64,000 bases of DNA. It comes from an uncultured Planctomycetaceae bacterium. Lineage in GTDB: Bacteria; Planctomycetota; Phycisphaerae; SM23-33. Below are positions 27,730-43,718 of the stretch, one piece after another (position 1 is the first letter of the stretch; each line of letters starts with the position of its first letter). Below the pieces are notes generated by a model. That model saw nothing but the letters and a program-made list of their open reading frames with translations, made no database searches and had not been told where the DNA came from. The DNA lies in the NCBI GenBank assembly GCA_964616985.1, contig CAZTVF010000005.1, forward strand, positions 6,771-70,770, in the 5' to 3' direction. The translations under genes were made by a program, and so were the position numbers.

Positions 27730-28824
27730 TTACATCCCGCACGCCTGCTTGAGGCGGCCGACGAAGTAGAGGAAGTCGCTGTAGCTCACGTCGTGCGGCA
27801 GGCCGTGGTCAAACCAGGGCACCAAGCCGCCCGCCTGCACCGTCCGAGCGATTTTGTCCATCTCGCGATCGATCGCGCCCCGCCCAGCCGCCAGCGCCTT
27901 TTTGTCCACGCCGCCCAGCATCAGCAGCCGGGGGTATCGCTTGCGGTATTCCCACACGTCCATGCCCGCCTGCGCCTCCATGGGCACCACGCCGTCGATG
28001 CCCGCCTCCAGCCAGATCGGGATGAGTTCATCGATATAGCCGTCGCTGTCGAGCACGATGAACGGAATGCCCTTCTGTCGCAGCTTGGCCACCATGCGGC
28101 GGTAGCGGGGGAGCATGAACTGCCGCACCTGCGGCGCGCCCAGCAGCGGGGCGGTCTTGTAGGCCATGTCCTCCCACAGGCAGACGGCGTCGGGCACGAA
28201 GTCGCTGAACATCGCGTCGCACAGCCGCTCGAACAGGTCCACCACCGTCTCCATCATCTCCTCGACCAGTGCGGGGTCGTCATAGAAGAGGTAGCTCGTC
28301 GCCTCCACGCCCATCATCTCGCGGATGGAGCCATACAGGCTGCCCGCGCGATCCATGTACACGATCAGGGGGGCCGTGCGCTGGCGCCAGGCTTCCTTCT
28401 GCCTCGCCCAGGCGTCCCCGACGCGGGCCTCGTCCCAGGCGATGCGGCCACGGTACTTGTCCCAATCGGCCCGCGAGGTCACGGGGAAGCTTTCGAAATG
28501 GGGCATCGACTTGTAGTTGTCCTTCTTGAACTCGGTGCAGACGATGCCGTTGTGGTTGACGTACGTGACCTTGTCTTCCGTCTCGCCGAGCACCTTCCGC
28601 TCGAAGGGCGGATACACCCAGATGCTGGCGGCGGGGCCTGACCAGAGGTGATGCTGCAGCCCCAGGTGGTCGATGAGGCGGGGGATGTCCTGTACGCCGG
28701 CGGGCATGCCCTCGCCGCGCCACCGCTCCAGCGTGCTGGGCCAGATGCCCCCCAACGTCGCCAGCGTGCGGCCGGGCGTCTGGAACCGCATCGCCCCCAG
28801 GAACGTCTCTCTCGCATTGTTCAT
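27730..28824 (-). CDS. uroporphyrinogen decarboxylase (URO-D) family protein, paralog 1
   Basis: It has a TIM-barrel UroD/MtaA-like pattern (...GVDKKALAAGRGAIDREMDKIARTVQAGGLVPWFDHGLPHDVSYSDFLYFV). It is a paralog of the ORFs at 39152-40141 and 41803-42804. Confidence 0.55.
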   Translation of the reverse strand: MNNARETFLGAMRFQTPGRTLATLGGIWPSTLERWRGEGMPAGVQDIPRLIDHLGLQHHLWSGPAASIWVYPPFERKVLGETEDKVTYVNHNGIVCTEFKKDNYKSMPHFESFPVTSRADWDKYRGRIAWDEARVGDAWARQKEAWRQRTAPLIVYMDRAGSLYGSIREMMGVEATSYLFYDDPALVEEMMETVVDLFERLCDAMFSDFVPDAVCLWEDMAYKTAPLLGAPQVRQFMLPRYRRMVAKLRQKGIPFIVLDSDGYIDELIPIWLEAGIDGVVPMEAQAGMDVWEYRKRYPRLLMLGGVDKKALAAGRGAIDREMDKIARTVQAGGLVPWFDHGLPHDVSYSDFLYFVGRLKQACGM

Positions 28825-28937
28825 GGCACTTCCCTTTGCGGCCATCAGGGCCGGGGACGAAGCCTAACCCCTCTCGCCGGGCGAGGTCAAGAATTGTCTG
28901 TTGACGCGGGGGAGCTTGTCGCGGTACGATTGGATGC

Positions 28938-28955
28938 GATGAATACGTATTCATC
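28938..28955. promoter_or_regulatory. perfect 18-bp palindrome GATGAATACGTATTCATC in the divergent UroD-like/IclR promoter region; candidate IclR operator
   Basis: It is perfectly self-complementary with an extra half-site GATGAATC 4 bp downstream. It lies about 20 bp upstream of the IclR-family gene start. Confidence 0.5.
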
Positions 28956-28976
28956 ATAGATGAATCGAGGCCGCGT

Positions 28977-29750
28977 GTGCCGGGCAGCCAGACAATTCAA
29001 TCGGTGGAGCGGGCGATGGACGCCCTTGAGCGCATCGCGCAGGCGCCGCAGGGCCTGACGCTGGCGGCGCTGGCGGCGGGGCTGGGCCTCAAGCCGCCCA
29101 CCGCGCACGCGATCCTGCGGACGCTCGCCGCCCGCGGCTACCTCCGCCGCCTGGACAAGCCCGCGCGGTACGCGATCGGGCCGGCTGCGGCGGCCTTGGC
29201 TGCGGCGGGCGCGCCGCTCCCCTGGCGCCAGGCCGCCCACGAGGCCATGGCCCGCCTCGCACGCCAGTTGCCCAAGGCCACCGTCGTCCTGGTGGAGGCC
29301 GTTGGCGGAGAGCTGATGACGACGCGGCGGATGAGCCCCGAGCAGCCGGGCGTCCTCCAGAAGCCCTCCCACCAGGTCATGTCGCCCTATTCCTCCGCCT
29401 CCGACCTGGCTTTTCTCGCCTTCGCGCCGGCCGATGCCGCGGCCAGCCATTGCCGCCGCTACCCCTTTGCCGAGTACGGCGCGCACCAGTGGCGCGGTGA
29501 GGCCGAGCTGGAGACCTTTCTCCAGCGGGCCCGCCGCCTGGGATACGCGCTGCGGGTGGACGCATTCTACCTCCTTCGGGCGGCCGCTCCGCTTCTGTCG
29601 CCCGAGGGCGAGCTGCTGGCGATGCTGGGGGTCTCGGCCCCCAAGGCCGGGATGACGCCGGCGATGAAGAAGAACATGATCGCCCGCCTGCTGGCGGCGA
29701 CCTCTGCGATCCATCAATCACTCAAACTTACCGCACAGGAGATCTCATGA
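28977..29750 (+). CDS. IclR-family transcriptional regulator
   Basis: It has an N-terminal wHTH (SVERAMDALERIAQAPQGLTLAALAAGLGLKPPTAHAILRTLAARGYL) and an IclR-type C-terminal effector domain. It uses a GTG start. Confidence 0.7.
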   Translation: MPGSQTIQSVERAMDALERIAQAPQGLTLAALAAGLGLKPPTAHAILRTLAARGYLRRLDKPARYAIGPAAAALAAAGAPLPWRQAAHEAMARLARQLPKATVVLVEAVGGELMTTRRMSPEQPGVLQKPSHQVMSPYSSASDLAFLAFAPADAAASHCRRYPFAEYGAHQWRGEAELETFLQRARRLGYALRVDAFYLLRAAAPLLSPEGELLAMLGVSAPKAGMTPAMKKNMIARLLAATSAIHQSLKLTAQEIS

Positions 29751-30757
29751 CGCTGACATCGGAATTCATCAAGAAGGAAGCACTCGCGCTGGGCGCCGAC
29801 GCCGTCGGCATCGGCAGCATCGATCGCTGGGCGGGGGCGCCCCTCCAGCAGGACCCGCGGCAGATCATGCCCGAGGCGCGGTCGGTCATCGCGCTGGCCT
29901 TTCGCGTGATGCGCGGCAGCCTGCGCGGCATCGAGGAGGGCACGTTCTTTTCAAACTATTCCGCTATGGGATACGGCGGCATCACGTACCTGTACATGCC
30001 GATGACGGTGATCAACGTCGCCAAGATCATCGAGGACGTCGGCTACGAGGCCATCCCGTATGGCCACCAGAGCGACTGGCGCGGCATCGATAACGTCGGG
30101 CAGACGTATGACCATTTCAGCCGTCCCGTCGCCCCCGGCCGCGCGGCCCCGGACGTGGCGGTGCATCTCCGCATCGCGGCGTACCTGTGCGGCCTGGGCG
30201 AGATCGGCTTCTCGAAGATGCTCCTGACGCCGCAGTTCGGGCCCCGGCAGCGCGTGGGCATCATCCTGACCGAGGCCGAACTGGAGCCCGACCCGATCTA
30301 CGCGGGCCCGCCGCTGTGCAACCGCTGCCTGGCGTGCGTCCGCGAGTGCCCCGGCAAGTGCTTCGACCCCTCCAAGACCGTGAAGGTCACGCTGGCCGGT
30401 CGCGAGGTCGAGTGGATGGACATCGACTGCAACGCCTGCGACGTCGCCTTCCGCGGCGCGGTGGTGGACGATTCGACGCCCCCGCAGGAGTCGTACATGG
30501 ACACCTTCGGCCACCGCACGCGGCCGGGGTCGTGGTCGCCGTTCTACAAGAAGCCTCGCAACCTCTACAACACCGGCCAGGCCGTCTGCGGCTCGCGAGG
30601 CTGCACGCGTGCGTGCATGATCTCGATGGAGTCTCGCGGGGTCGTGGCCAACAAGTTCCACCAGCCCTTCCGGCGGCGCAAGCCCTGGAGCATCGACTGG
30701 TCGCAGCCGCCGGCGGACGGTGAATCCACGGATGGTCTCAAGAGCGACACGGACTGA
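29747..30757 (+). CDS. QueG/reductive-dehalogenase-like iron-sulfur protein (DUF1730-like N-domain plus 4Fe-4S ferredoxin motif), paralog 1
   Basis: LGADAVGIGSIDRW...PEARSVIAL...YLCGLGEIGFSKMLLTPQFGPRQRVGIILTEAELEPDPI...PLCNRCLACVRECPGKC follows the QueG order (LGFDLVGI/ARSVI/LGWIGKN..ELEPD/CxxCxxCxxxCP). Additional Cys clusters lie downstream. Confidence 0.5.
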   Translation: MTLTSEFIKKEALALGADAVGIGSIDRWAGAPLQQDPRQIMPEARSVIALAFRVMRGSLRGIEEGTFFSNYSAMGYGGITYLYMPMTVINVAKIIEDVGYEAIPYGHQSDWRGIDNVGQTYDHFSRPVAPGRAAPDVAVHLRIAAYLCGLGEIGFSKMLLTPQFGPRQRVGIILTEAELEPDPIYAGPPLCNRCLACVRECPGKCFDPSKTVKVTLAGREVEWMDIDCNACDVAFRGAVVDDSTPPQESYMDTFGHRTRPGSWSPFYKKPRNLYNTGQAVCGSRGCTRACMISMESRGVVANKFHQPFRRRKPWSIDWSQPPADGESTDGLKSDTD

Positions 30758-30823
30758 AAGGGCGATGCGACCGGGCAAGCAGGGCGGCTCACCGTCGGTC
30801 GGTAGTAGTGCCCTGCAATACAA

Positions 30824-30944
30824 TATGTGAATGCGTGTGGCGGCGGCTTGCCGTTCGGCGCTGTCAGATATGGGTGACGGCATGGGCTTCTACAGCGCCG
30901 AACGGCAAGCCGGCGCCAAAGCCTTGCTCCAAGACTGAACCGTG
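30824..30944. repeat. ~115-bp long-stem hairpin element, copy A (21-23-bp perfect inverted repeat around a 29-nt loop)
   Basis: The stems are GGCGGCTTGCCGTTCGGCGCTGT ... ACAGCGCCGAACGGCAAGCCG. The conserved flanks are ATGTGAATGCGT upstream and CGCCAAAGCCTTGCTCC..AACCGTG downstream. The second copy at 33229-33350 has the loop reverse-complemented. Confidence 0.6.
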
Positions 30945-30970
30945 GAAAACTAATACAAGAGGTGAACGGG

Positions 30971-32014
30971 ATGAGCCTGAGCAGTGCGGACATCAAGAGG
31001 CGTGCGATGGAGCTTGGCGCCGACCTCGCCGGCATCGGGAACATCGAGCGATGGCAGGGGGCGCCGCGCCAGATGGACCCGCTGCAGATCATGCCCGAGT
31101 GCCGCAGCATCATCGTCATGGGCTTCCGCGTGCACCGCGGCACGCTGCGCGGCATCGAGGAGGGCACGATGTTCAGCAACTACGCGGCCATGGCGTACGG
31201 CGGCATCACGTACCTCCGCATGCCGCCGGTCATGTGGGGCCTGGCCGACATGATCGAGGATGAGGGCCACGAGGCCGCACCCATCGGCCAGATCGACTGG
31301 TGGCGAAGCTACGACGACGCCGGGCGCGTGTGGAAGGGCTTCAGCCGGCCTGTTGCCGAGGGCAAGGCCGCACCCGACGTGTCCATCCACACCCGCGTGG
31401 CCGCCTACCTCGCCGGCCTGGGCGAGTTCGGCTGGAGCAAGGTCTTCCTCACGCCGCAATTCGGCCCCCGGATGCGGTTCGGCATCGTGCTGACCGACCT
31501 GGAAGTGGAGCCGGATCCGATCTACGCCGGCCCGCCGCTGTGCAATCGCTGCATGGCCTGCGTCCGCGAATGCCCCGCCAAGGCCATCAGCCCCGACAAG
31601 AGCACCAAGGTCGTCCTGGCCGGCCACGAAGTGGAGTACGGCGAGTTCGACGCCATCCGCTGCTGCAACGTGTTCGGCGGCGGGGAGATTCCCGACGACC
31701 AGGCCTCGATCAAGAATGAGGATATTTACTCCTCCTGGCTGGGGCTCAAGTCCGTCCGGGGCTCGCACACGCCGTTCTGCAAGAAGCCCTCGCCCGTCTA
31801 TTGGACCGGCCAGGCCATCTGCGGCGGCAAGGGCTGCGTGCGGGCGTGCATGATGTCGCTCGAGGCCCGCAAGGCCGTGGGCAACCAGTTCAAGTCGCCC
31901 TTCCGCCGGCGCAAGCCGTGGTCCGTCGACTGGACGAAGGACGCCCCCGCAATCGAGGATCCCATCGCCGATTACCGTCCCCCGGCCGACCGCCCGGCCG
32001 AGGACTTTAGCTGA
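30971..32014 (+). CDS. QueG/reductive-dehalogenase-like iron-sulfur protein, paralog 2 (tandem duplicate)
   Basis: It is about 60% identical to the upstream ORF over its full length (MSLSSADIKRRAMELGADLAGIGNIERWQGAP...CNRCMACVRECPAKA). It has an RBS AGAGG. Confidence 0.5.
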   Translation: MSLSSADIKRRAMELGADLAGIGNIERWQGAPRQMDPLQIMPECRSIIVMGFRVHRGTLRGIEEGTMFSNYAAMAYGGITYLRMPPVMWGLADMIEDEGHEAAPIGQIDWWRSYDDAGRVWKGFSRPVAEGKAAPDVSIHTRVAAYLAGLGEFGWSKVFLTPQFGPRMRFGIVLTDLEVEPDPIYAGPPLCNRCMACVRECPAKAISPDKSTKVVLAGHEVEYGEFDAIRCCNVFGGGEIPDDQASIKNEDIYSSWLGLKSVRGSHTPFCKKPSPVYWTGQAICGGKGCVRACMMSLEARKAVGNQFKSPFRRRKPWSVDWTKDAPAIEDPIADYRPPADRPAEDFS

Positions 32015-32023
32015 AAACTGGCG

Positions 32024-32083
32024 TGGCGGCCTTGCGGGGCCGCCGCCAGAGCCCTGAGGGTGGCGGCCTTCGCAGGCCGCCGC
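32024..32083. repeat. two adjacent REP family 1 copies (variant GGCGGCCTTGCGGGGCCGCCGCC, then GGCGGCCTTCGCAGGCCGCCGCC)
   Basis: This is the sequence immediately after the Fe-S paralog 2 stop codon. Confidence 0.5.
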
Positions 32084-32148
32084 CCGTCATATGAGCAGCG
32101 ACAGAAGGCATAGCGCGATCGAACGCTTGACGCAACCGTAGAAGGCAC

Positions 32149-33204
32149 ATGATGACCAAGACAAGCGACAGCACGTTCCCGCGGTTCTCGGTCGGCTACC
32201 AGCTCGCCGAGGAGGGCGAAGAGTCGTTCGTTGACATCGTGAGCGACTACCGGCCGCACGTGGCGGAGGTGTACTTCCCGTGGGCCGCCATGCCCTCGGG
32301 GCGGGCCTCGCTGACCGAGCGGCGGGGCTACGTCGATTGGTCCGGCCAGGGGCGCCTGGAAGCTGACCTCAAGGCGCTGCGCGCGATGGGCGTGCGGCTG
32401 AACGTGCTGTTCAACGCGAACTGCTACGGCGGCAAGGCCGTCAGCGAGTACCTGCAGAACCAGGTAGCTTCGGTGATGGAACGCCTGCAGGAAGTCTGCG
32501 GCGGGGCCGACGTGGCCACCACCTGCTCGCCCGCCATCGCGCGGCTGATCAAGACGCACTTCGCCGCCACGCGGACGCGGGCGTCGGTCAACATGCGGAT
32601 CGGCACGGTGCAGGGCATGCAGTACGTGGCCGACATCTTCGACGAATTCTGCGTGCAGCGCGACTACAACCGCGACCTTGGCCGCCTGCGCCAGCTGCGC
32701 CAGTGGGCCGACGCGCACGGCAAGAGCCTGTCGATCCTGGTCAACAGCGGGTGCCTCGCCTTCTGCAGCGGGCAGACGTTCCACGACAACCTCGTCGCGC
32801 ACGAGCGCGAGGTGGATGAGAGCGTCAACGTCGCCGGGTGGTCACCCACGGTGTGCTGGGGGCTGCTGAAGGACAAGGCGAATTGGCCGGTGCTGCTGCA
32901 GTCCACGTGGGTCCGCCCCGAGGACATCGGCCAGTACCGCGGCCTGGTGGACATGGTCAAGCTGGCCACGCGGATGCACCAGCGGCCGCGGATGGTGATC
33001 GCCGCGTACGTGCGGGCCCGCCACCATGGAAACCTGCTGGACCTGATGGAGCCCGCCTTCTCGCCCGCGATCGCCCCGGCCGTCATCGAGAACGACCGCA
33101 TGCCCGCGGACTTCTTCGAGCGCACCAGCCAGTGCGATCGCCAATGCGACCGCTGCGGCTACTGCGCCGAGGCGCTGTCCAAGGCGCTGGTGACCCCGGA
33201 GTGA
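32149..33204 (+). CDS. hypothetical protein (Cys-rich C-terminus CDRQCDRCGYC; possible TIM-barrel enzyme)
   Basis: It is a 351-aa ORF with coding-like composition followed by a hairpin element. No confident family assignment was possible from the sequence alone. Confidence 0.3.
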   Translation: MMTKTSDSTFPRFSVGYQLAEEGEESFVDIVSDYRPHVAEVYFPWAAMPSGRASLTERRGYVDWSGQGRLEADLKALRAMGVRLNVLFNANCYGGKAVSEYLQNQVASVMERLQEVCGGADVATTCSPAIARLIKTHFAATRTRASVNMRIGTVQGMQYVADIFDEFCVQRDYNRDLGRLRQLRQWADAHGKSLSILVNSGCLAFCSGQTFHDNLVAHEREVDESVNVAGWSPTVCWGLLKDKANWPVLLQSTWVRPEDIGQYRGLVDMVKLATRMHQRPRMVIAAYVRARHHGNLLDLMEPAFSPAIAPAVIENDRMPADFFERTSQCDRQCDRCGYCAEALSKALVTPE

Positions 33205-33359: not shown

Positions 33360-34769
33360 CTACGCCTTCACCGGCGGGCGGGTGAAGGGGCGGCGGGGCA
33401 GGGAGGTCGCCGTCTGGTATCGCCCGGGCGTGATGTGCTCTTCACCGATCACGCCGCCAGCGGCGAGCAGGTGCTGCTGCAGCATCGCGACGGGAAGCTG
33501 GCGGGGCGTGACGCCCTGGCGGATGGAAAGAGCCGCCGCGGCGCCGGCGGCCTCGCCCGTGCCCGCGCACTGGGCCATCACCCGCGTGGAGCCCAGGGCG
33601 ACGTGCGTGACGCTGATGCAGCGCCCGGCCACGAGGATGTTCTCGATCTTCCGCGGGACCAGCACGCGGTAGGGGATGTGGTAGCGGAAGCCCGTTCGCG
33701 GCCGCCACGTCGTGCCGTCCATGCCGGGCCCGTCGATGCGGTGGATGTCGATGAAGAACGAGCCGTAGCAGATGTTGTCGTCGAAACGGCACTCCTTCAT
33801 GATGTCCTGCTCGGTCAGGACGTACTCGCCCATGATCCGCCGCGACTCGCGCAGGCCGATCGTGTTGGGCGTCGAGACAAGGTAGCACTCCTCCATGCCG
33901 GCGACGTACTTGCGGAAGACGTCGATGCAGTGGAAGGCCTGGCGTCGGGCCTCGATGGTCGCGCGCGTCAGGTCCTCGGCCTTGGTCGTGTCGATGCCGT
34001 TGACGTGCGTGAAGTTGATGCCCACGAAGTGCGGCTGCGACGAATTCCACCAGAAGCCCATGATGCAGTGCTGAAAGGGCTCCATGTCGCCGTTCTGCTG
34101 GGCCTTCTCCCACACGTGGTTCATGCCGTAGCTCTGCTTGCCGTCGGGCCCGACGCGCCACGCCTCGACCTTCGCCCAATCGACGCCGCCGATGGTGAAC
34201 ATCAGCGTGACGGGCTGGCACTTGTGGTCGCCGGGGCGGCCGACTTCAAACTCGCAGCCGGCCGAGGCGGCGAGGTCGCCGTCGCCGGTGCAGTCGACGA
34301 GGCGCTTGGCGAAGACGGCCTGGCGGCCGGTCTTGTTCTGGATGACCGCCCCGACGGCGGCGCCGTCGCGGACGATCGCGCCGCACAGGAAGGTGTGGTA
34401 GAGGATCTCAACTTTCGACTCGAGCATCATCCGCTCGAGGAGGAACTTGAGCCCCTCGACGTCGAAGAACGCGCCGCCGGGGTAGCGGTCGCCGAAGCCC
34501 TCGTCGCAGACGCGGTCGACGATCTCAGCGGCGATGCCGCCGACGATGCGGTCCTGGTCGCCCCAGCTGGAGTAGATGGCCATGTAGCCGTGCCCGCCGG
34601 CCCCGGCCACGCCGCCGAGGCAGTTGAACTGCTCGACCAGCAGCGTGCGCTGCCCCAGCCTGGCCGCCGCCAGCGCCGCAGCCACGCCCGCCGGCCCGCC
34701 GCCGGCCACCACAACGTCATACTCGCCCTTGACGGGCAGTTCCCTGGCCTCTTCGAAATACCGCTGCAT
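33360..34769 (-). CDS. FAD-dependent oxidoreductase (FAD_oxidored / glucose-inhibited-division-like Rossmann family)
   Basis: It has the dinucleotide-binding motif YDVVVAGGGPAGVAAALAAARLG and a C-terminal GTGEAAGAAAAL motif. The start was set at MQRYFEE. Confidence 0.65.
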   Translation of the reverse strand: MQRYFEEARELPVKGEYDVVVAGGGPAGVAAALAAARLGQRTLLVEQFNCLGGVAGAGGHGYMAIYSSWGDQDRIVGGIAAEIVDRVCDEGFGDRYPGGAFFDVEGLKFLLERMMLESKVEILYHTFLCGAIVRDGAAVGAVIQNKTGRQAVFAKRLVDCTGDGDLAASAGCEFEVGRPGDHKCQPVTLMFTIGGVDWAKVEAWRVGPDGKQSYGMNHVWEKAQQNGDMEPFQHCIMGFWWNSSQPHFVGINFTHVNGIDTTKAEDLTRATIEARRQAFHCIDVFRKYVAGMEECYLVSTPNTIGLRESRRIMGEYVLTEQDIMKECRFDDNICYGSFFIDIHRIDGPGMDGTTWRPRTGFRYHIPYRVLVPRKIENILVAGRCISVTHVALGSTRVMAQCAGTGEAAGAAAALSIRQGVTPRQLPVAMLQQHLLAAGGVIGEEHITPGRYQTATSLPRRPFTRPPVKA

Positions 34770-34771
34770 GC

Positions 34772-36096: not shown

Positions 36097-38946
36097 TTAC
36101 TTCGCCGGGGCCGAAGTGGGCGGCTCGGCGGCAGGCGTCATTATAACGCGTCCCATCCGCTCGGGCACGTGGTTATTGTTGCTGTGGACGGGCGACCACA
36201 TGGATCGTTCCATGCCGTACATGTGACGCGTGCGGATGACGTTGAAGGCAATCTTCTGCCCGGTGGCGGCGTCCTTAACGCCCAAGGTCTTCCAGGGGAT
36301 GGCGACTGTGAGCGTCCAGGACGTGGCGTCCTTGTCCGCGTGGACCTGCCAGGGGCCGTTCCAGTTGGCGTCCCAGACCTCGCCCTCGTACTGCGTGCCG
36401 ATGGAATTGGCGACGAACTGGAAATAAGTCATGGCACCGGCGTTGGGGTCGACGAAGATCTCGACACTGTCCTCGTTGTACACCGCCCCGTCGTGCTGCG
36501 TGACAGATGGCCTCATGTTCGCCAAGATCTTCTTATCTTCGAAACAACGGATGCTGAGGTATAGGGCATTGGCGTCGTGCAGCAGCCGCACCTCAGTGGG
36601 CTGGGCCGCGTTGGCGTCCCCCGTGGCGTTGACGAAGCCCGGCAGGGCCGACGCCTTCGCCCAGGCAGGGTCTTTGAGGCCATCCTCGATCTTGGGCCCC
36701 TTGGCCACCGCCGGGCACAGGGCGCGGGGCTGGCGGGCCAGCGCGACCGCTCGCGCGTCGATATTCACCGGCGGCTGCACCAGCGCGTTGGCGTCGGCTG
36801 CGAGGCCGACCGATACCACCGGGTGCGGCTGGACTTCGGCCGGGTTGCCTTCAAAGGCCAGGGCGAAGGACACCTCCCGCGATTCGCCCGCGGCAAGGTT
36901 GGCCTCCGCCCGCAGGGGCGAGACCTTCCAGCGGCAGTTGGCTGGCAGCGTCCACACAGCCGCCTGCGCCGCCGGCTGGGATGTCGCATTCCGCAGCGGC
37001 ACCTTCACGGTACCGCAGACGGCGCCCGTTTCATCGCTGACGGCGAAGTCGCGGGCCGTCAGCGGCCGGACATATTGCAGCCCGCCGCCCGGTGGGACGT
37101 CGATCACCACGCGGATGCCGGCCGTGGACAACGGTTGCCGATCGGCGTTGAGCGGGCGACGCTGCGCCGAACGTCCGCCACGCGCGACCTTTCGGTCGGT
37201 GGCTGCCGGCCCGGCGGGGTCTACGGCCGGGCTGAAGGCATAGTAGTCCTTGGCGTACCAGTCGGCACACCAGTCCAGGCCTCCGTGCATGCCGTAGAGG
37301 CCCCAGGGGTTGGGCAGCGGCATCACGTCGAAGTCGTGCTGCAGGGCCGGCTTGTCCCCGAACGACCATCGCTCTGGCGTGCCGGCGCGGGCGGCGTATT
37401 CCCACTGCGCCTCCGTCGGCAGATGTGCGCGCAGGCCCGTCTGCAGCGAAAGGCGGCGGCAGAAATCGGCCGCCTGCTGCCAAGTCAACTCGGCGGGCAT
37501 CCTCGCCGCCGCCTGCTCGATCGCCGTCACCACGCTCGGCGACAGCTTGACGTCTGTGGCCTGGCCGCTGACACCATCGGGCGTCTGGCCGGGAAGGTGC
37601 CCCATCACAGCGCAGTACTGCGCACCGGTCAAGCGGGAGGCGCTGATGTAGAAAGGCTTCGACAGCGTCACTTCGTGCTGCGGTCCTTCATCGGCCTCTC
37701 GCTGGGCCTCGTCGGCGGGCGAGCCCATCGTGAACTTTCCCGCGGGCACGAGCACCAGCGGCATCAGCACGCCTCCGGCCAACTCGAGGGATTCGGCCTT
37801 CGGAGCATTGGGGCCGCAGGCCAGGGCGGCCGCCGCCTGCATCATGGCGGCACGCGCGATGGCCGCCAGGCGAGGATTGGCGCCCGCGGAGGCCTCCACC
37901 GTTTTGAGGGCCTCCACGGCGGTCGGCGAGCCAAGCACTGAAAGGACGCGGACCGAGCGCAGGGAGGTCATCTCCTTGGCCTGCACCTGCACGGCCTCAC
38001 GGTCCAGCAGTTCCTGCAGGCGCGCGCGGACCTCTTCGGACTCGGTAGTCTTGAGGGCTTCTCGCAGCAGCGGGGCGGCGACAGGTCCGATCTTGGCGAG
38101 GGCGTCCGACGCGGCCTTGCGATTGGCGAACTCATCGGCGTCCAGCTGTGTCACGAGCTTGGCGACCATGGCGGCATCGACCCCGCCGCTGGCATGCTTG
38201 GCGGCGATGAACTTCGCCGCCGCGTCGCCGGCGGCCACGAGGGACCATTGCGCATCGATCCCAACCGGCGCGGGCTCGCCCAGCCTGGCCCACAGCACTT
38301 CCATCTGCGATTTGGTAAGGTCCACGACCGCGGCGATGGCTTCGACCCGCACGTTGTCCAGCCCCCAGGCGATGATGCTACCGCCCGCGCCCTGGCCTTC
38401 GCAGACGAGGTTCGCTTCGGGGGCCTCGTGCGGCAGGACGACACTGACCTGGTGAATCGTGTTGTAGCTGGGCTCGTGGCCCCGGCTGTTGAGGGAGAGC
38501 TTGTCCCTGGCCGCCGGCTTGGGGTTGAGCTCATCGATCAACGTGAGGCTGCCGGCCGTCGCATCGGATCCCGTGAAGGTCAGACGTGTCAGCAGCTGTC
38601 CGCCGCCCGTGCGAAGCGACCACGACGAACTGCTGGAGGGAAAGCTCATCAGCATGTATACATCGAGCGTCATCCGCAGGAACTTGTGCGGCGGGAGATT
38701 GTGAAGCGAAAGGGTCGGCCCCGCGTTCTCGAAGCGGCCCAGGAAGGTCCGCTTGATCCCGGAGGCGTTCTCGCGGCGGTCGCTGGACCACTCGCTGCCG
38801 ACGCCGGCGGCGAAGTTGGATTCATAGACGAGCGTCTCGCCGCTGGTTCGCGACGAGGCTGCCGCCTTGGGGGCCTGCGCCTCGGCGGCCGAGAACACCG
38901 CCGCCAGCAGCGCGAAAGCACAAACGCTCCAACCTGCGATCCGCAT
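36097..38946 (-). CDS. secreted multidomain protein with formylglycine-generating-enzyme (FGE/SUMF1 sulfatase-maturase) domain and C-terminal CBM9/DOMON-like domain
   Basis: It has a signal peptide. The FGE block reads LVPAGKFTMGSPADE...GPQHEVTLSKPFYISASRLTGAQY...WQQAADFCRRLS...LPTEAQWEYAARAGT...WGLYGMHGGLDWCADWY. The C-terminus ...DANALYLSIRCFEDKK...YNEDSVEIFVDPN...YFQFVANSIGTQYEG... resembles CBM9. Confidence 0.6.
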   Translation of the reverse strand: MRIAGWSVCAFALLAAVFSAAEAQAPKAAASSRTSGETLVYESNFAAGVGSEWSSDRRENASGIKRTFLGRFENAGPTLSLHNLPPHKFLRMTLDVYMLMSFPSSSSSWSLRTGGGQLLTRLTFTGSDATAGSLTLIDELNPKPAARDKLSLNSRGHEPSYNTIHQVSVVLPHEAPEANLVCEGQGAGGSIIAWGLDNVRVEAIAAVVDLTKSQMEVLWARLGEPAPVGIDAQWSLVAAGDAAAKFIAAKHASGGVDAAMVAKLVTQLDADEFANRKAASDALAKIGPVAAPLLREALKTTESEEVRARLQELLDREAVQVQAKEMTSLRSVRVLSVLGSPTAVEALKTVEASAGANPRLAAIARAAMMQAAAALACGPNAPKAESLELAGGVLMPLVLVPAGKFTMGSPADEAQREADEGPQHEVTLSKPFYISASRLTGAQYCAVMGHLPGQTPDGVSGQATDVKLSPSVVTAIEQAAARMPAELTWQQAADFCRRLSLQTGLRAHLPTEAQWEYAARAGTPERWSFGDKPALQHDFDVMPLPNPWGLYGMHGGLDWCADWYAKDYYAFSPAVDPAGPAATDRKVARGGRSAQRRPLNADRQPLSTAGIRVVIDVPPGGGLQYVRPLTARDFAVSDETGAVCGTVKVPLRNATSQPAAQAAVWTLPANCRWKVSPLRAEANLAAGESREVSFALAFEGNPAEVQPHPVVSVGLAADANALVQPPVNIDARAVALARQPRALCPAVAKGPKIEDGLKDPAWAKASALPGFVNATGDANAAQPTEVRLLHDANALYLSIRCFEDKKILANMRPSVTQHDGAVYNEDSVEIFVDPNAGAMTYFQFVANSIGTQYEGEVWDANWNGPWQVHADKDATSWTLTVAIPWKTLGVKDAATGQKIAFNVIRTRHMYGMERSMWSPVHSNNNHVPERMGRVIMTPAAEPPTSAPAK

Positions 38947-39034
38947 GAGATGGCTCCGTAGAGGTGATGCCCCTATTCTCTAGCCACCCCTGGACGAAAT
39001 GCAAGGAAATAGATTACGCGTGGGGCCAGAAATC

Positions 39035-39134
39035 GGAAGCACGAAGCCCAAAAACTCGAAGCACGAAGCCCAAAAACTCGAAGCACGAAGCACGAAATCC
39101 GAAACAAGCCCGAATACGGGTTCGGATTTCGTGC
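39035..39134 (-). terminator. candidate terminator region for the upstream minus-strand gene: tandem 22-bp repeats plus a 14-bp-stem hairpin
   Basis: GAAGCACGAAGCCCAAAAACTC occurs twice, then GCACGAAATCCGAA-(18-nt loop containing the CCCGAATACGGG sub-hairpin)-TTCGGATTTCGTGC. On the minus strand the hairpin is followed by GAGTTTTTGGG. Confidence 0.35.
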
Positions 39135-39151
39135 TTCGGATTTCGGATTTC

Positions 39152-40141
39152 TCAGGCGCCTCCAGCGGCGACAAACGCCTCGTAGGCCCAGTCGTCCCAC
39201 TCGTTCTTGACGCCGATGCCGGGCAGGTCGGGATAGTTCTTGGCGATCAGGCCGCCGCGGAACGTATCCACCATGCGGCGCGTCTCGCGCTCGATCAACT
39301 CGCGGTCGCCCGTCGGCAGCACCTTCTGGATATCGCATGGCGAGTACAGCCCAACGCCGTGCTTGCGCAGTTTGGCCGCCAGGGCCGGCAGATCGTACAC
39401 GGCCGGCTGATCGAACTGCAGGCAGTCGATGCCCGCCTCGCACAGGTCGTCCACCAGGGCCCAGTTGTAGCCGCACGAGTGCTGGATCACCTTCATGCCG
39501 TACTGATGGGCCTTGCCCGTGAGACGCTCGTACAGCGGGCGGAAGATGTCTCGCCACATGGCCGGGCTCATCAGGGTGCGGTCCTGGATGCCCAGGTCCT
39601 CGCAGAACATGATGCCGTCAACGCCGGCCTTGCCGTACTGCTCGATCACGCCCTCCAGCATCGTGGTGACGCGGTCGTGGAGGATGTCGATGCGCTCGCG
39701 TTCCTCGATGAGGTCGAGGAAGTAGATCTCCATCTTCCGCAGGTAGCGGCAGGTGGCGAAGGGCCAGCCGGGCATCCAGCCCAGGCGGAAGCGGTCGGTA
39801 CCCGAGGCGGCCAGGTCGCGGGCGCCCTGGAAGAAGGCGGGGTTGGCCAGGTCCGGCAACTGCAGGCCCTCGAGCTTGTCCCACGTGTCCAGGGCGGGCT
39901 TGAAGATCTCGCCGCCCTGCGACATGCCCGAGATGCGGTGCCACACGTTGCCCCAGGCGTCGGTGCGAAACTCGATCTCGCCCTCCGTCCACACCTCGGC
40001 TTTGAAGCCATCGTTGACCCCGCAGCCGGCGAAGTCGTTGCGGCGGTCGCGGTCGAAGTTCAGGCCGATGCGCTCTTCGCAGCGGCACTCGATGTTCTGG
40101 CGAATCACTTCACGCGGGGTCAAGGGCATCGCGGGCTCCAT
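39152..40141 (-). CDS. uroporphyrinogen decarboxylase (URO-D) family protein, paralog 2
   Basis: It is homologous to 27730-28824 and 41803-42804 (...IFRPLYERL...GMKVIQHSCGYNWALVDDLCEAGIDCLQFDQP...). Confidence 0.55.
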   Translation of the reverse strand: MEPAMPLTPREVIRQNIECRCEERIGLNFDRDRRNDFAGCGVNDGFKAEVWTEGEIEFRTDAWGNVWHRISGMSQGGEIFKPALDTWDKLEGLQLPDLANPAFFQGARDLAASGTDRFRLGWMPGWPFATCRYLRKMEIYFLDLIEERERIDILHDRVTTMLEGVIEQYGKAGVDGIMFCEDLGIQDRTLMSPAMWRDIFRPLYERLTGKAHQYGMKVIQHSCGYNWALVDDLCEAGIDCLQFDQPAVYDLPALAAKLRKHGVGLYSPCDIQKVLPTGDRELIERETRRMVDTFRGGLIAKNYPDLPGIGVKNEWDDWAYEAFVAAGGA

Positions 40142-40189
40142 TCGTTTCAGGCTGTGGTTGCAGGGATTATCCGCTCCCCGGCGCGCCGG

Positions 40190-41761
40190 TCAAGCCTTCC
40201 TCGCGGCCGAGTCGCTGCGGCCATAGGCGTGCAGCCGGAATCGGCACAGGGTGAGGCGGTCGTGCAGCACCACGCCGGTGCCGTGGCAGGACTCGTCGCC
40301 GTTGAGGCGGCGGGTGGCAAGGAACTCGCCGCTGGCATAGCGGCCCTCGTCCGATTCCAGGATCTCCGCCGCGACCAGCGAGCCGTCCGTCGGCTCGGAG
40401 GTGAAGATGATGTTGTAGCCCATGGCCAGGAATACCCCGCCGCCAAGCGATACCAGCAGGGCCGAGCCGGGCACGGCACACTCGGCCAGCTTGCGGCTGG
40501 TCCGCGGCCGCAGGCGGAAGCCATCCAGTTCCACCATCCACGACTCGTCATCGGCCTGTTGCAGGAAGCCCGCGGTCCTGCCCTGGGCCGCCGCCTCGGC
40601 CAGGGGCGGCCCCATCTCTCGAAGTGCGGCATACACGTCGGCCAGCGGGTGGGGGGCCTTCATTGCGTCAATGCCGAACGGCGCGAACCCGATGGCCCCG
40701 TGCTGCCCGATCGCGTAGAGGCACTTGGCCGCGGCGGCGGGCGTGGCGTTGGTCTCGGGGACGAACAGCGGGTTGTCCTCGCGGGCATAGTCGGCCGCGT
40801 GGTGGCGGAAGTCAGGCTGGTAGATGTCCGGCGCCAACAGGGCGATGCTCGGCGCCGCGGCCCGCCAGATTTCGTACACCTTGGTTACCGGCCCGCCGCT
40901 GGGATACTGTCCGGGCTTGTAGCCCGGCCCGGCGATCAGCCACGCGTTGGCGTACATCGGCAGGTCGTACTCGGCCTTGCCCGCGCGGGCCATCTGCTCC
41001 ACGTACCGCGCCACGTGCCAGGCCATGAATACTTCGTCGGCCTCGCCCGCGAAGACCTCGGCCCACGTGCCCTGCATGCGTGCGCCCGCGGCATCCCACG
41101 CGTCGCGGATGGGCGCACTGAGCCGGTCGCGGCGCCGGGCCAGGTGCGACATCAACTCCGCCGGCACGGCCTGGGCGAACGCCGCCTCGGCCGCGGCCGA
41201 GCGGTCGCGGGCGATCGACAGCACGCCTGTCTCGTTCTCCACCTGCACCATCAGCACGGTGTGGCGGTCGGCGTCGATCTGGCCGATGCGTCTCATCACC
41301 GCCGCGAACGCCCGGGCGTCGGCGGCCAGCACGGCGGGGCTGAACATGCTCAGCGTCCAGCTGGGCTTGCCCGCTTCGCCCTCGGCACGGGGGAATCGCT
41401 TGAGGTCGGTTTTCACCCACGCGGGGGCGTAGCAGGAGATCGCGTTCTTCATCGCCCCGAACCACAGGAACACCAGGTGCAGCCCGCGGCTGCGGCACGA
41501 CTCGACGATGCCCTCGAGCAGCGTGAAATCGAACCGGCCTTCGACGGCCTCGACGAGGTCCCAGTACAGCGGCAGGATGGCCAGGTTGGAGTTTAGGCTC
41601 ACCAGGCCGTCGAGCACCGGCTGGATGTACTCGAGGTTGGACCCCGAGCTGTTGTTCGTCTGCCCGCCCAGCAGGATGCTCGGCCGCCCTTCAATCACCA
41701 GTTTGCCTCGCCCGCCGGCGGTCTGTGCGGGCGGGATGATCTTGATCCAGTCGTGGCTCAT
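40190..41761 (-). CDS. clan GH-A glycoside hydrolase (GH35/GH42-like TIM barrel), 523 aa
   Basis: The catalytic acid/base-like block HTVLMVQVENETG matches the GH35-type QxENE motif, and the upstream FDFTLLEGIVESCRSRGLHLVFLWFG is TIM-barrel-like. The track ORF 40190-42736 carries a spurious 325-aa extension, and the start was set at MSHDWIKII. Confidence 0.5.
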   Translation of the reverse strand: MSHDWIKIIPPAQTAGGRGKLVIEGRPSILLGGQTNNSSGSNLEYIQPVLDGLVSLNSNLAILPLYWDLVEAVEGRFDFTLLEGIVESCRSRGLHLVFLWFGAMKNAISCYAPAWVKTDLKRFPRAEGEAGKPSWTLSMFSPAVLAADARAFAAVMRRIGQIDADRHTVLMVQVENETGVLSIARDRSAAAEAAFAQAVPAELMSHLARRRDRLSAPIRDAWDAAGARMQGTWAEVFAGEADEVFMAWHVARYVEQMARAGKAEYDLPMYANAWLIAGPGYKPGQYPSGGPVTKVYEIWRAAAPSIALLAPDIYQPDFRHHAADYAREDNPLFVPETNATPAAAAKCLYAIGQHGAIGFAPFGIDAMKAPHPLADVYAALREMGPPLAEAAAQGRTAGFLQQADDESWMVELDGFRLRPRTSRKLAECAVPGSALLVSLGGGVFLAMGYNIIFTSEPTDGSLVAAEILESDEGRYASGEFLATRRLNGDESCHGTGVVLHDRLTLCRFRLHAYGRSDSAARKA

Positions 41762-41802
41762 GCGTGCTCCGTTGATGACGTTAATGAGGCTTGGCCGAGG
41801 GG

Positions 41803-42804
41803 TTAGTGCCGGGTGCTCCCGGCCAGTTGGCAGTAGTGTTTGAGCAGGCGGACGTAGGTGTGGAAGTCGGCGAGGCTGACGCCGGGCGGGGTCTGGTGGT
41901 CGGTGGAGGGAAGGAAACCGCCGCTGCGCATGACGGGCAGGAGGCGTTCGCACTCGGCCGTGATGGCGGCCTCGCCCAGGTGCGTGACGGTCTTGTCGAA
42001 GCCGCCGATCATCCGCCACGTGGGGTAGAGGCGGCGGAGTTCGGCCACGTCCACGCCGGCCATCCGCTCCAGCGGCAGGCAGCCTTCGATGCCGGCCGCC
42101 TGCATCCAGGGCACGACGGGCATGACGTCGCCGTCGGTGTCGACCATGGGGATCACGCCCGCCTGCTTGAGCCGCGGCACGATGCGGCGGTAGCGGGGGG
42201 CGATGAACTCGTCGAACTGCTCGCGGCTGAGCATCGGGCCGTGGTTGTAGGAGAGGTCCTCGGCGAAGGTCAGCACGTCGGGGGCGAGGATCGCCAGCAC
42301 CTGGTCGAGGACGGCATTGTTCCAGCGGCACAGGTCGTCGTTGATGCGGTGCATGAGGGCCGGCTGGTCGTAGAAGGCGAAGAGGTGGGGCTCGACGCCG
42401 AAGATCTCGCGCGGGAACCAGAAGAAACCGTCGATCTGCATCCAGACCACGACGTCGCCCGTGGCCTGGGCGGCGGCGATGCGGCGGAGATTGGCCGTAT
42501 CCAGAACGGGCGCCTGCCGCAGCGTGGGCGCGACGACGCGTTCGTAGTCGGCCTCGCTGTCGATGTAGCCCGCGCTGCGGGGCCTGTCGGCCGGGCGGGG
42601 CAGGGTCCACCGCGGGCTGATCCACACCCATTCGTTGACGGCCAGGCCGAAGTGCCGCAGCGTGTCCTCGCGCGAGAGCTTGGGCAGCCCCTCGCCGCAC
42701 CATCGCTCGAGCGTCTTGTCCCACCAGGAAATCCATTCCATCGCCGGCAGGGCGCCCGCCGGCTGGAAGTTCATGAGGGCCTTGAACTGCTGGCGGATGT
42801 TCAT
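41803..42804 (-). CDS. uroporphyrinogen decarboxylase (URO-D) family protein, paralog 3
   Basis: It is the third homolog (...FDEFIAPRYRRIVPRLKQAGVIPMVDTDGDVMPVVPWMQAAGIEGCLPLE...). It overlaps the nucleoside hydrolase stop by ATGA. Confidence 0.55.
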   Translation of the reverse strand: MNIRQQFKALMNFQPAGALPAMEWISWWDKTLERWCGEGLPKLSREDTLRHFGLAVNEWVWISPRWTLPRPADRPRSAGYIDSEADYERVVAPTLRQAPVLDTANLRRIAAAQATGDVVVWMQIDGFFWFPREIFGVEPHLFAFYDQPALMHRINDDLCRWNNAVLDQVLAILAPDVLTFAEDLSYNHGPMLSREQFDEFIAPRYRRIVPRLKQAGVIPMVDTDGDVMPVVPWMQAAGIEGCLPLERMAGVDVAELRRLYPTWRMIGGFDKTVTHLGEAAITAECERLLPVMRSGGFLPSTDHQTPPGVSLADFHTYVRLLKHYCQLAGSTRH

Positions 42805-43718
42805 CGTGTGGCCTCCGCTCCCATCACGGTCGAAAGGAACAGCTCGCGCAGGCCCGGCGCGTTGGCTTCGGTGGTGACGTGGATGCTGGCGCCGTTGCTG
42901 CCGGCGACGGTCATGCCGCGGGTGCAGTCGCCGCGCGTCTCCACGCGGATGGACATCGGCTGCGTCTTATAGAACGTGCGGTCGAAGGCGTGCACCATCG
43001 GGAACAGGTCGTACATCACCGGCCCGGGTTTCCAGTTCTGGCCCGGATGCCACACGTCGATCGCCTTGCCCATCGCGATCGCCAGGGGGGAACGGCTGCG
43101 GCGGAAGACGTCGCATTCGGCCATCGTCAGCGTGAACTGTCGCGTCACGCTCCAGGTGCCCATGTGGATCGGCACGCCGCTGGTCAGCACGATGTCCGAC
43201 GCGACGTAGTCGTACGCCACGTTATGCTCGCAGCGGTTGAGGACCATTTCACCGCCCATCATGGCGATGTATTGGATCTTGCCCGCAATGTCGGGCCGCC
43301 TCCGCAAGGCCGTCGCGATGTTCGTCAGCGGGCCGATGCACGCCAGCACGATCTCGCCCGCGTTCTGCTCCACGGTGCGGATGATGAGGTCCACCGCGTC
43401 CTGCCCGGAGGGATCGTCGATCGCTTCCTCGGGCAGGGCGAAGGCGTAGTGGTTCATCGACCGCGACATGTCGTGCTGCTCGGCGAGCTCCTGGGGGCCC
43501 ACCGGCCGCAGGGGCAGTTCCATGCCCGCCGCTACGGGGATGTCATCGCGGCCGAGATATCGCAGCAGTCGCTTGACCAGCCTCACCCGCTTGTCGCTGG
43601 GCCAAGTGACGGTCGTGATCGCCTTGATCTGGAGCTCCGGGCGGAGCGCCGCGAACCATATCGCCAGGAGGTCGTCGATGTCCTGGCCCGGATCAGTGTC
43701 GATGAGAATTCTCTGCAT
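42801..43718 (-). CDS. inosine-uridine-preferring nucleoside hydrolase family protein
   Basis: The N-terminal ILIDTDPGQDIDDLLAI is the IUNH aspartate-cluster signature. Confidence 0.75.
   Translation of the reverse strand: MQRILIDTDPGQDIDDLLAIWFAALRPELQIKAITTVTWPSDKRVRLVKRLLRYLGRDDIPVAAGMELPLRPVGPQELAEQHDMSRSMNHYAFALPEEAIDDPSGQDAVDLIIRTVEQNAGEIVLACIGPLTNIATALRRRPDIAGKIQYIAMMGGEMVLNRCEHNVAYDYVASDIVLTSGVPIHMGTWSVTRQFTLTMAECDVFRRSRSPLAIAMGKAIDVWHPGQNWKPGPVMYDLFPMVHAFDRTFYKTQPMSIRVETRGDCTRGMTVAGSNGASIHVTTEANAPGLRELFLSTVMGAEATR

Follow-up and report, generated by a model that had tools for sequence, protein, structure and literature searches.

Gene content and organization of the locus

Three genes related to uroporphyrinogen decarboxylase, here termed UroD1, UroD2 and UroD3, lie within 16 kb of a 64,000-nucleotide stretch of DNA from an uncultured Planctomycetaceae bacterium (contig CAZTVF010000005.1, positions 6,771 to 70,770; hereafter the window). 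Judged by sequence, the three proteins are neither heme enzymes nor classical methyl-cobalamin methyltransferases, and belong to two widespread, uncharacterised branches of the UroD fold. The G+C content of the window is 66% and every region contains several long open reading frames (ORFs); coding frames were selected by the G+C content of the codon positions (GC3 of ~0.9, GC2 of ~0.45). The genes of the span and of its flanks are, in window coordinates:

20634-23339, plus strand: GH35 protein of 901 amino acids with galactose-binding domains, a second, large beta-galactosidase
23546-26152, plus strand: TPR/Big_7 protein
26149-27729, plus strand: right-handed beta-helix protein
27730-28845 (alternative internal ATG start at 28824), minus strand: UroD1, 371 amino acids, predicted cytoplasmic (PF01208, 40.9 bits)
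28977-29750, plus strand: IclR-family regulator (PF09339 and PF01614), divergent from UroD1 and overlapping RDHl1 by 4 nucleotides
29747-30757, plus strand: RDHl1 (reductive-dehalogenase/QueG-like 1), predicted cytoplasmic (TIGR02486, 52.9 bits)
30962-32014, plus strand: RDHl2 (reductive-dehalogenase/QueG-like 2), a paralog of RDHl1 (58% identity)
32149-33204, plus strand: ORF351, a Cys-rich protein of 351 amino acids with eight invariant Cys and no Pfam or PDB match
33360-34784, minus strand: FAD-dependent oxidoreductase, predicted cytoplasmic (PF12831, 390 bits)
34772-36070, minus strand: ORF432, predicted secreted, weakly esterase-like (weak PDB matches only)
36097-38946, minus strand: FGE-like::CBM9 protein, 949 amino acids, predicted secreted (PF03781, 98.3 bits; PF06452, 60 bits)
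39152-40141, minus strand: UroD2, ORF of 329 amino acids, predicted cytoplasmic (PF01208, 49.4 bits)
40190-41761, minus strand: GH35-family beta-galactosidase, 523 amino acids, predicted cytoplasmic, with a DUF5597 C-terminal domain (NF051902, 557.3 bits; PF18120)
41803-42804, minus strand: UroD3, predicted cytoplasmic (PF01208, 40.7 bits)
42801-43718, minus strand: IUNH-family protein (nucleoside-hydrolase fold), predicted cytoplasmic (PF01156, 176.8 bits)
43929-45209, plus strand: EPSP synthase

Along the minus strand, the genes are separated by -4 (the IUNH stop overlaps the UroD3 start), 41, 48, 205 (UroD2/FGE-like), 26 and -13 nucleotides, a spacing that suggests one or two operons; a weak hairpin 3' of UroD2 (39126-39109) is a mere hint of an operon boundary. 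The PF12831 oxidoreductase gene ends this run and is convergent on ORF351. The span is composed, mosaic-like, of three gene modules. Module A comprises the four tightly packed cytoplasmic genes IUNH-UroD3-GH35-UroD2, and UroD1 probably belongs with them despite its distance of 11 kb. Module B follows past the 205-nucleotide gap and contains the FGE-like::CBM9 protein and ORF432, both predicted to be secreted, and then the cytoplasmic PF12831 oxidoreductase. Module C is an autonomous operon of the IclR regulator, the two RDH/QueG-like genes and ORF351; these four plus-strand genes (28977-33204) were omitted from an earlier interpretation of this DNA that had been made without database searches (hereafter, the sequence-only reading).

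With respect to the minus-strand genes, the sequence-only reading is largely borne out. It had recognized three UroD-family genes (all pass the PF01208 cut-off, and its start of UroD1 at 28824 is a possible one), an IUNH-type gene on the same strand as UroD3, a secreted 949-amino-acid FGE::CBM9 protein and an FAD oxidoreductase, and each of these assignments agrees with the profile matches given above. The hydrolase between UroD3 and UroD2, which it had called GH35/42-like, belongs to GH35 and not to GH42: its NF051902 score exceeds the cut-off of 500 bits, its start codon is fixed and its closest solved structure is a Bacteroides xylanisolvens beta-galactosidase (8z47, E 5e-98), with Bgl35A matched at E 2e-76. 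The glycan context it had assigned to the locus likewise holds, as the window encodes two GH35 proteins, a CBM9 domain, a beta-helix protein and BNR repeats, and relatives carry glycosidases and sulfatases (see below). Given that the 901-amino-acid GH35, TPR/Big_7 and beta-helix genes occupy positions 20634-27729, the glycan-related region reaches upstream of 27730.

UroD1 and UroD3 share a carboxylate-rich signature

UroD1, UroD2 and UroD3 all exceed the PF01208 URO-D gathering cut-off of 23.9 bits and show the UroD-type (beta/alpha)8 barrel fold, which places them as predicted enzymes in the UroD/MtaA/MetE TIM-barrel superfamily, where they represent two kinds that have yet to be characterised. 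The pair UroD1/UroD3 is clearly paralogous (30.5% identity over 364 amino acids, BLASTP E 2e-49), whereas UroD2 is distant from both (BLASTP E 2e-5 to 7e-5; hhalign of the family profiles, E 8e-5). The notion of a single UroD triplet, as advanced by the sequence-only reading, thus has to be given up in favour of two very different subfamilies, and orthologs of UroD2 are linked neither to the other UroD types nor to GH35.

The feature that sets UroD1 and UroD3 apart is found at the position of the H-x-C zinc motif of MtaA, which reads D-S-D-G in UroD1 and D-T-D-G in UroD3 (the alignment pairs DxDG with HSCG). The motif forms part of an acidic signature consisting of E225-D226, D266-x-D268-G, E290, K315 and D346-H347 in UroD1, and of E182-D183, D222-x-D224-G, E246, D270-K271 and D302-H303 in UroD3, the latter being invariant in 25 UroD3 orthologs. 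Across 43 members of the UroD1/3 clade (~30% mutual identity), W42, P79, D226, D266, D268, G269, G282, P288, G311, K315, D346 and H347 (UroD1 numbering) are invariant, and E225 and E290 are nearly so. The D-H pair falls on the G-H of the GHG motif when aligned to solved HemE, and it occupies the position that we take to hold the third zinc ligand of MtaA. As all signature residues follow predicted beta-strands, they would lie on the catalytic face of the barrel. In UroD1 and UroD3, invariant carboxylates, a Lys and a His thus occupy, at the C-terminal strand ends of the barrel, the positions that hold the zinc ligands in MtaA.

Such an arrangement could point to hydrolysis: the UroD barrel would then carry a new glycosidase- or etherase-like enzyme family, in which carboxylates at the ends of strands 4 and 7 act as in clan GH-A to cleave a glycoside or riboside that is inaccessible to IUNH and GH35. 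The invariant E/D after strand 4, the D-K after strand 7, and the DxD and DH elements would all be located on the catalytic face, the proteins are cytoplasmic and found in glycosidase-rich loci that are often under AraC control, and no partner genes for handling a cofactor are present. However, hydrolysis is without precedent in the UroD superfamily, and both strand numbering and geometry derive from secondary structure only; we consider a hydrolase family of this type quite unlikely.

The UroD1/3 clade is large. UroD3 matches at least 4600 clusters at 90% identity, the hosts named for its close orthologs (61-76% identity) are Victivallales, Lentisphaerae and Spirochaetota, and a scan of one genome per species recovered at least 588 relatives, with hosts in Lentisphaerota, Planctomycetota, Verrucomicrobiota, Armatimonadota, Chloroflexota, Clostridia, Omnitrophota, Latescibacterota and Hydrogenedentota. 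For UroD1, 3497 clusters at 50% identity were matched, 359 of them at E<=1e-30. Relatives of UroD3 and UroD2 carry source names such as 'uroporphyrinogen decarboxylase family protein', 'hypothetical' and, once, 'methylcobalamin:coenzyme M methyltransferase', and our search of the full-text literature found no characterisation of either the UroD1/3 or the UroD2 subfamily. Single-sequence PDB searches returned noise only for UroD2, UroD3 and ORF351. In UroD3 loci, two clusters of 'antisense ORFs' (clusters 1 and 2) owe their conservation to the gene that they shadow and were discarded as genes.

UroD2 retains a zinc-type motif

UroD2, a member of a separate and strongly conserved subfamily, differs from this pattern in that the H-x-C motif is kept. 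Its H-S-C-G corresponds to residues 221-224 of the 329-amino-acid ORF and, given that the database form starts four codons later (325 amino acids), to the invariant H217 and C219 of that form. Other invariant residues among UroD2 orthologs (325-amino-acid numbering) are D240, C265-D266 and C176-E177-D178, and all of them are located at strand ends. Since one invariant Cys sits 48 residues past the HSC motif, a His/Cys/Cys zinc site is plausible; if C265 serves as the third ligand, it would be positioned on another strand than its counterpart in MtaA, the family that the UroD2 model resembles most. UroD2 yielded at least 1280 cluster matches (90% identity), and the best 120 of these are 67-87% identical and bear names from several phyla; its profile found no match in the PDB. 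UroD2 orthologs reside in variable sugar-related settings. GH35-UroD2 was considered as a conserved gene pair and rejected, as the adjacency is absent from three UroD2 ortholog contexts. We infer that UroD2 may be a zinc-dependent, alkyl (thiol) transferase-like enzyme with a separate role of its own.

Relationship to heme biosynthesis and to corrinoid-dependent methyltransferases

The database names and the Pfam family point to UroD, and ordinary HemE paralogs functioning in heme synthesis were the alternative that the sequence-only reading had named against itself. When checked, this alternative is effectively refuted. The Pfam URO-D alignments of all three proteins begin only at model positions 91-95, leaving unmatched the N-terminal third, the part of HemE in which the Arg residues for substrate binding and the essential Asp are located. 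A pattern search of UroD1-3 for RQAG/QAGR (RQAGR-type) motifs gave no hit, no HemE model was present among their NCBIfam matches, identity to solved UroDs is 13-16%, and no heme-pathway gene was found in the 64-kb window. In addition, the invariant DxDG/DK/DH carboxylate cluster of UroD1 and UroD3 is not a feature of HemE.

The same observations bear on a cofactor-free, UroD-like decarboxylation, acting either on uronic acids, as suggested by the sequence-only reading, or on modified nucleosides or bases, set free by IUNH, that bear a carboxymethyl side chain. Retention of the His of the HemE GHG motif, as D-H, and the nucleoside-hydrolase context are compatible with this proposal. Against it stand the missing N-terminal third and RQAGR motif, the absence of adjacent uronate-pathway genes, and the acidic cluster itself, which would repel carboxylate substrates unless bridged by a metal. 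Nothing points to uronate decarboxylation, and we regard decarboxylases of either type as very unlikely.

Characterised non-heme members of the superfamily are alkyl transferases using zinc and/or corrinoid or folate (PMC10418091), and the sequence-only reading had also considered an MtaA-like identity. One part of this assignment can be retained, namely the HxC zinc motif of UroD2; UroD1 and UroD3 lack it, and on MtaA/CmuA models with cut-offs of 235-400 bits, the three proteins score a mere 17-37 bits (best scores of 19.1, 36.7 and 19.3 for UroD1, UroD2 and UroD3, respectively). Among the closest known systems are the methylcobamide:coenzyme M methyltransferases MtaA, MtbA and MtsA and the bacterial MtaA-like (Mlp) gene clusters (PMC10418091). 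In its extended form, this alternative holds that the proteins are MtaA/methyltransferase-I-type, corrinoid-dependent O-demethylases of methyl-galactose (together with GH35) or 2'-O-methylribose (together with IUNH), and that the corrinoid protein is encoded elsewhere. UroD2, with its HxC motif and its similarity to the MtaA model, would be in line with it. Many of the hosts, for example Victivallales and Spirochaetota, are generally regarded as anaerobes. Anaerobic hosts could not use O2-dependent demethylases of 2'-O-methyl nucleosides (PMC12709175), and putative corrinoid enzymes are encoded in the window. Likewise, the methyltransferase-I proteins OdmB, VdmB and CdmB belong to the UroD superfamily and activate a methyl donor in a catabolic context (PMC13222342); similar to UroD1 and UroD3, CdmB lacks HxC in our alignment.

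Several findings weigh against a corrinoid-dependent reaction. The similarity of CdmB to the UroD1/3 clade is marginal (E 0.88), and the invariant carboxylate cluster is unlike the active sites of known members. Known systems also keep their partners adjacent, as seen for Mlp clusters (PMC10418091) and for cdmBCA (PMC13222342). OdmB, VdmB and CdmB are encoded beside a corrinoid protein and methyltransferase II. This is not the case for the UroD1/3 clade: no corrinoid protein or activase adjoins UroD3-family genes, and among 242 neighbours of such genes (80 loci, see below) there was no corrinoid methyl-carrier, activase or methyl-tetrahydrofolate methyltransferase. Of the 132 immediate neighbours, two carry a B12-binding domain and are apparently radical SAM proteins (the Radical_SAM family is likewise counted twice); the leading families of the 110 next neighbours include no such domain. 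Within the window, the sizeable ORFs include no small corrinoid protein, activase or methyl-tetrahydrofolate methyltransferase, and neither a methyl carrier nor a sulfatase came to light in the flanks as far as the window reaches, where the sequence-only reading had proposed to search for corrinoid proteins or sulfatases. The corrinoid-type proteins of the span are reductases of the RDH/QueG class rather than methyl carriers and belong to an independent module, as detailed below. Taken together, we judge corrinoid-dependent O-demethylation to be unlikely.

The only B12-binding Pfam domain of the window belongs to a radical SAM protein (524 amino acids) that adjoins a Methyltransf_32 protein (50673-53103, minus strand) and is not a methyl-carrier corrinoid protein.

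UroD3 relatives reside in sugar-catabolic loci

To place the family in its genomic context, neighbours were scanned against Pfam in 80 genomic loci anchored on UroD3 relatives. AraC regulators (10 of 132 immediate and 3 of 110 next neighbours), URO-D paralogs (7 and 6), GFO_IDH_MocA (6 and 4) and AP_endonuc_2 (4 and 3) were found, and sulfatases, fucosidases and other glycosidases are also present; relatives carry GH38, GH123, GH2, GH29, sulfatase and GFO/AP_endonuc_2 genes. The UroD3 family therefore lives in sugar-catabolic settings without an adjacent corrinoid carrier.

Close orthologs share a further partner. Of the 15 contexts of UroD3 orthologs (identity of 61% or more), 7 have an IUNH-family gene in the same cluster (the window and loci L006, L002/L007, L004, L011, L013 and L170), and a single weak case was seen among 70 more distant relatives. 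Given that the IUNH genes beside UroD3 orthologs are only 25-50% identical to one another, the association appears to have been maintained rather than inherited once. The IUNH protein of the window is well above the PF01156 cut-off of 34.2 bits and carries the N-terminal Asp cluster, which serves Ca2+ and ribose binding in the family, as the variant DTDPGQDIDD (canonical DXDXXXDD); it remains below the equivalog cut-offs of RihA/B/C and UriH (135 vs 382 bits on the RihC model). Ribokinase-like PfkB genes occur in L002 (243 bits) and L004 (210 bits; cut-off of the ribokinase model, 300), and a 5'-nucleotidase gene adjoins UroD3 in L171.

UroD paralogs are frequently clustered. A second, longer member of the clade with DSDG and DH motifs adjoins UroD3 in L002, where the genes overlap by 4 nucleotides, and in L003/L014, L012 and L170. 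At least two UroD-like paralogs lie within 20 kb of each other in about 20 of the 80 loci, and tandem arrays of three are found in L044 (6912-10993) and L070 (8911-11898), one from a Hydrogenedentota and one from a Phycisphaerales genome. Because of these arrays, clustering of UroD paralogs is best viewed as a habit of the family and nothing special to the window.

We also noted a family of 410-420 amino acids without Pfam match that adjoins UroD3-family genes in L004 (8742-10004), L034, L040, L057 and L080; seven copies in four loci are ~30% identical to the L004 protein, which occupies the place of the second UroD paralog in its locus.

An independent RDH/QueG-like module adjoins UroD1

The genes of module C require separate consideration, as they lie next to UroD1 and their products could be taken as corrinoid partners. 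RDHl1 matches PceA (8q4h, E 2e-9), and also NpRdhA and QueG, in the conserved core, and both RDHl1 and RDHl2 contain a first Fe-S motif, CxxCxxCxxxCP, and a second group of invariant Cys; RDHl1 is presumed to bind a corrinoid and Fe-S clusters. The two proteins share core and first Fe-S motif with class III cobalamin enzymes (PMC7585037, PMC4646009), from which they differ by their small size (336-350 amino acids), by the lack of a twin-arginine translocation signal, by scores below the cut-offs of TIGR02486 (52.9 and 42 vs 160 bits) and TIGR00276 (30 and 27 vs 200 bits), and by their constant pairing with an ORF351-type protein and, often, an IclR regulator.

At least 376 relatives of RDHl1 are present in metagenomes. 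We analysed 80 metagenome loci anchored on RDH-like genes 63-75% identical to it, in which an ORF351 homolog adjoins the RDH-like gene in 51 of the 80 loci (21 of the 26 that span at least 9 kb) and an IclR gene lies upstream in 30. None of the 80 contains UroD3 or IUNH, and only one or two contain any UroD-like gene. RDH/QueG-like proteins and ORF351 thus form an independent, widespread module, and the conserved operon, with one or two RDH-like genes, is also found in L011 (4887-8770), L094, L108, L110, L125, L131, L147 and others. In L011, the IclR gene, two RDH-like genes, ORF351, UroD3, UroD1, an IUNH-like gene and a PF12831 gene all lie on one strand, and this arrangement, shared with the window, probably reflects the relatedness of the two genomes. 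We therefore rejected a corrinoid link through the RDH-like genes as a general feature; their position next to UroD1 in the window and in L011 lends no support to methyl-corrinoid chemistry of the UroD proteins. A connection to queuosine (galactosyl- or mannosyl-queuosine in combination with IUNH, GH35/GH38 and QueG-like proteins) was also discarded, since nothing beyond coincidence speaks for it and the independence of the RDH module speaks against it.

ORF351 belongs to a family of 340-350 amino acids with 3750 homologs and eight invariant Cys, including a C-terminal CX3CX2CX2C motif; the protein has no Pfam match even at E<=10, and a 21-sequence profile has no match in the PDB. Assignment as a U32 peptidase, prompted by a G-x-x-C...C motif and by the JGI name 'collagenase-like PrtC family protease' on many homologs, was rejected as no profile matched. 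No halogen-related context was seen around the module, and in the full-text literature we found no description of an RDH-like/U32-like pair or of RDH-like proteins combined with an ORF351-type Cys-rich protein and IclR.

A PF12831 oxidoreductase gene is often close to the RDH-like/ORF351 module and lies beside it in L011, L110, L131 and L144. Examples of PF12831 oxidoreductases adjoining UroD3 orthologs or the RDH-like module in other genomes are at 3256-4608 of L011 and 4098-6437 of L171.

A possible role in sugar and riboside scavenging

We propose that the uncharacterised UroD-fold enzymes act within a cytoplasmic module for scavenging of sugars and ribosides, an overall picture that we consider a real possibility, short of an even chance. 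Module A is read as riboside-scavenging because the combination of IUNH, a ribokinase-like kinase and variable glycosidases defines the ribose-utilisation systems (Rus) of Bacteroidetes. These systems comprise an IUNH-type nucleoside hydrolase and ribokinases, together with a highly variable set of genes for glycosidases, esterases, FAD oxidoreductases and even FGE-like proteins, and they are thought to free ribose from varied complex sources (doi 10.1101/574913). The window and its relatives display the same mix of genes, and module A could thus be a functional analogue of Rus in a non-Bacteroidetes genome. In contrast to Rus, however, the window has no SusC/SusD pair and no ribokinase, ribokinase-like genes being found only in the relatives L002 and L004; a RusR-type regulator was not identified in it, and a term search of the Rus paper turned up no UroD-fold genes.

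Within such a module, UroD1 and UroD3 would act on a modification or linkage of the C-O type in a small sugar or riboside that has been imported, together with the IUNH-type ribosidase and the GH35 galactosidase and, where relatives have one, with the ribokinase-like kinase. Given that a corrinoid partner is missing and that the site is rich in carboxylates, their mechanism would be different from that of known members, namely corrinoid-independent and probably dependent on a divalent metal. Our best guess is the removal of an alkyl (methyl) group or a hydrolysis at a modified ribose or cyclitol; that the reaction is a dealkylation or hydrolysis of a C-O bond is a tentative proposal, and we hold it with considerable doubt. 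Demethylation would fit the chemistry of the superfamily. It would also fit 2'-O-methyl nucleosides, whose free forms require a demethylase, and the only one known is O2-dependent (PMC12709175). Going further, the UroD1/3 clade might represent a new corrinoid- and zinc-independent catalytic class, possibly a heteromer of two paralogs, in which an invariant cluster of Asp, Glu, Lys and His cleaves a C-O bond of modified riboses or other sugars, either hydrolytically or by dealkylating an ether. This is a speculative and rather unlikely scenario. If true, it could provide, for example, a route for 2'-O-methyl nucleosides that parallels the dioxygenase pathway without requiring O2, and would complete riboside scavenging in anaerobic glycan degraders.

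Several points speak against our proposal. A corrinoid-free, C-O-cleaving member would be unprecedented, given that all characterised non-heme members are alkyl transferases (PMC10418091), and loss of the zinc ligands alone leaves possible a corrinoid chemistry with a carrier encoded elsewhere, as CdmB also lacks HxC. IUNH is missing from 8 of the 15 ortholog contexts, three of which (L003, L012 and L015) have AP_endonuc_2/GFO pairs instead, and the window contains no PfkB, SusC/SusD or sugar permease gene, leaving the operon without a ribokinase or transporter. Equivalence of the partner paralogs to UroD1 is unproven, since they are only 31-34% identical to it. ORFs of the related loci were called by a simple heuristic, and the operon structure rests on gene spacing only, as a scan for promoters and terminators gave counts not above shuffled expectation. 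Finally, what can be said about substrate, metal and activity comes from sequence and context, and the type of reaction is a guess.

Independent of the exact reaction, the UroD1/3 and UroD2 subfamilies belong to a known superfamily, are widely distributed and have newly described signatures. They abound in the major phyla of glycan degraders in sediment, soil and gut, and a metabolic reconstruction that takes their current names ('uroporphyrinogen decarboxylase', 'methylcobalamin:CoM methyltransferase') at face value may wrongly infer heme synthesis or methylotrophy. Signature residues are now defined for each UroD kind, and the UroD3 orthogroup is linked to IUNH-type hydrolases and ribokinase-like kinases, which together offer a testable entry to an uncharacterised step of sugar and riboside turnover. 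The RDH/QueG-like and ORF351 module adds a second widespread, uncharacterised system within the same span.

Secreted proteins of module B

The 949-amino-acid protein of module B starts with a signal-peptide-like N-terminus, followed by a region with HEAT-like repeats, and contains a domain of the FGE-sulfatase superfamily (residues 397-597) and, at the C-terminus, a CBM9-like domain (residues 755-936). Of the solved structures, PvdO (5hha, E 2.8e-17) is the best relative of the FGE-like domain, which scores 80 bits on the NCBIfam PvdO model. The domain aligns to the FGEs of S. coelicolor, T. curvata and human only up to '...VARGGR'; the catalytic (copper-binding) Cys pair after RGG(S) is absent, as the sequence that follows, SAQRRPLNADRQPLSTAGIRVV, contains no Cys. 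Given that the sizeable ORFs of the 64-kb window also include no sulfatase (PF00884), as the sequence-only reading had noted, a role as FGE maturase is excluded on present evidence, in agreement with its suggestion of a non-maturase function. The protein resembles PvdO and other non-maturase members of the superfamily in lacking the Cys pair, and differs from PvdO in that it scores far below the equivalog cut-off of 500 bits and is fused to the HEAT-like repeats and the CBM9-like domain. A binding or other catalytic role at the cell surface, exerted together with CBM9, is possible.

ORF432, which the sequence-only reading had listed as an esterase-like alpha/beta hydrolase, retains part of this description. 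Its N-terminal half, which begins with a signal-peptide-like sequence, is alpha/beta-hydrolase-like and its C-terminal half is helical. The assignment is favoured by weak PDB matches, at E 0.0016 to the feruloyl esterase 9j07 and at E 0.049 to LC-Est1C, the latter alignment spanning a G-x-S-x-G-like elbow; no Pfam or NCBIfam match backs it.

Additional features of the window

The remainder of the window consists of housekeeping genes and further glycan-related genes. The latter include a DHDPS-family (sialate-lyase-like) gene, a BNR-repeat protein and a PF12831::BNR fusion at 53262-57733 (plus strand), which suggest a cluster for sialic-acid-type sugars. The window thus has two PF12831 oxidoreductases, at 33360-34784 (minus strand) and 55124-57733 (plus strand), and the second is the one fused to a BNR/sialidase-like beta-propeller.

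Near the left edge, an acetate kinase ORF of 596 amino acids (478-2268, plus strand) has its Acetate_kinase domain starting at residue 198, indicating a long N-terminal extension or a mis-set start. A protein of 602 amino acids (3946-5754, plus strand) combines a region similar to FlgI, the flagellar P-ring protein, with HEAT repeats, and no further flagellar genes were seen in the window. At the right edge (60062-63768, plus strand), the window encodes HsdM of a type I restriction-modification system and an HsdS-like ORF that overlaps the end of HsdM, and the G+C content falls to ~0.60-0.62.

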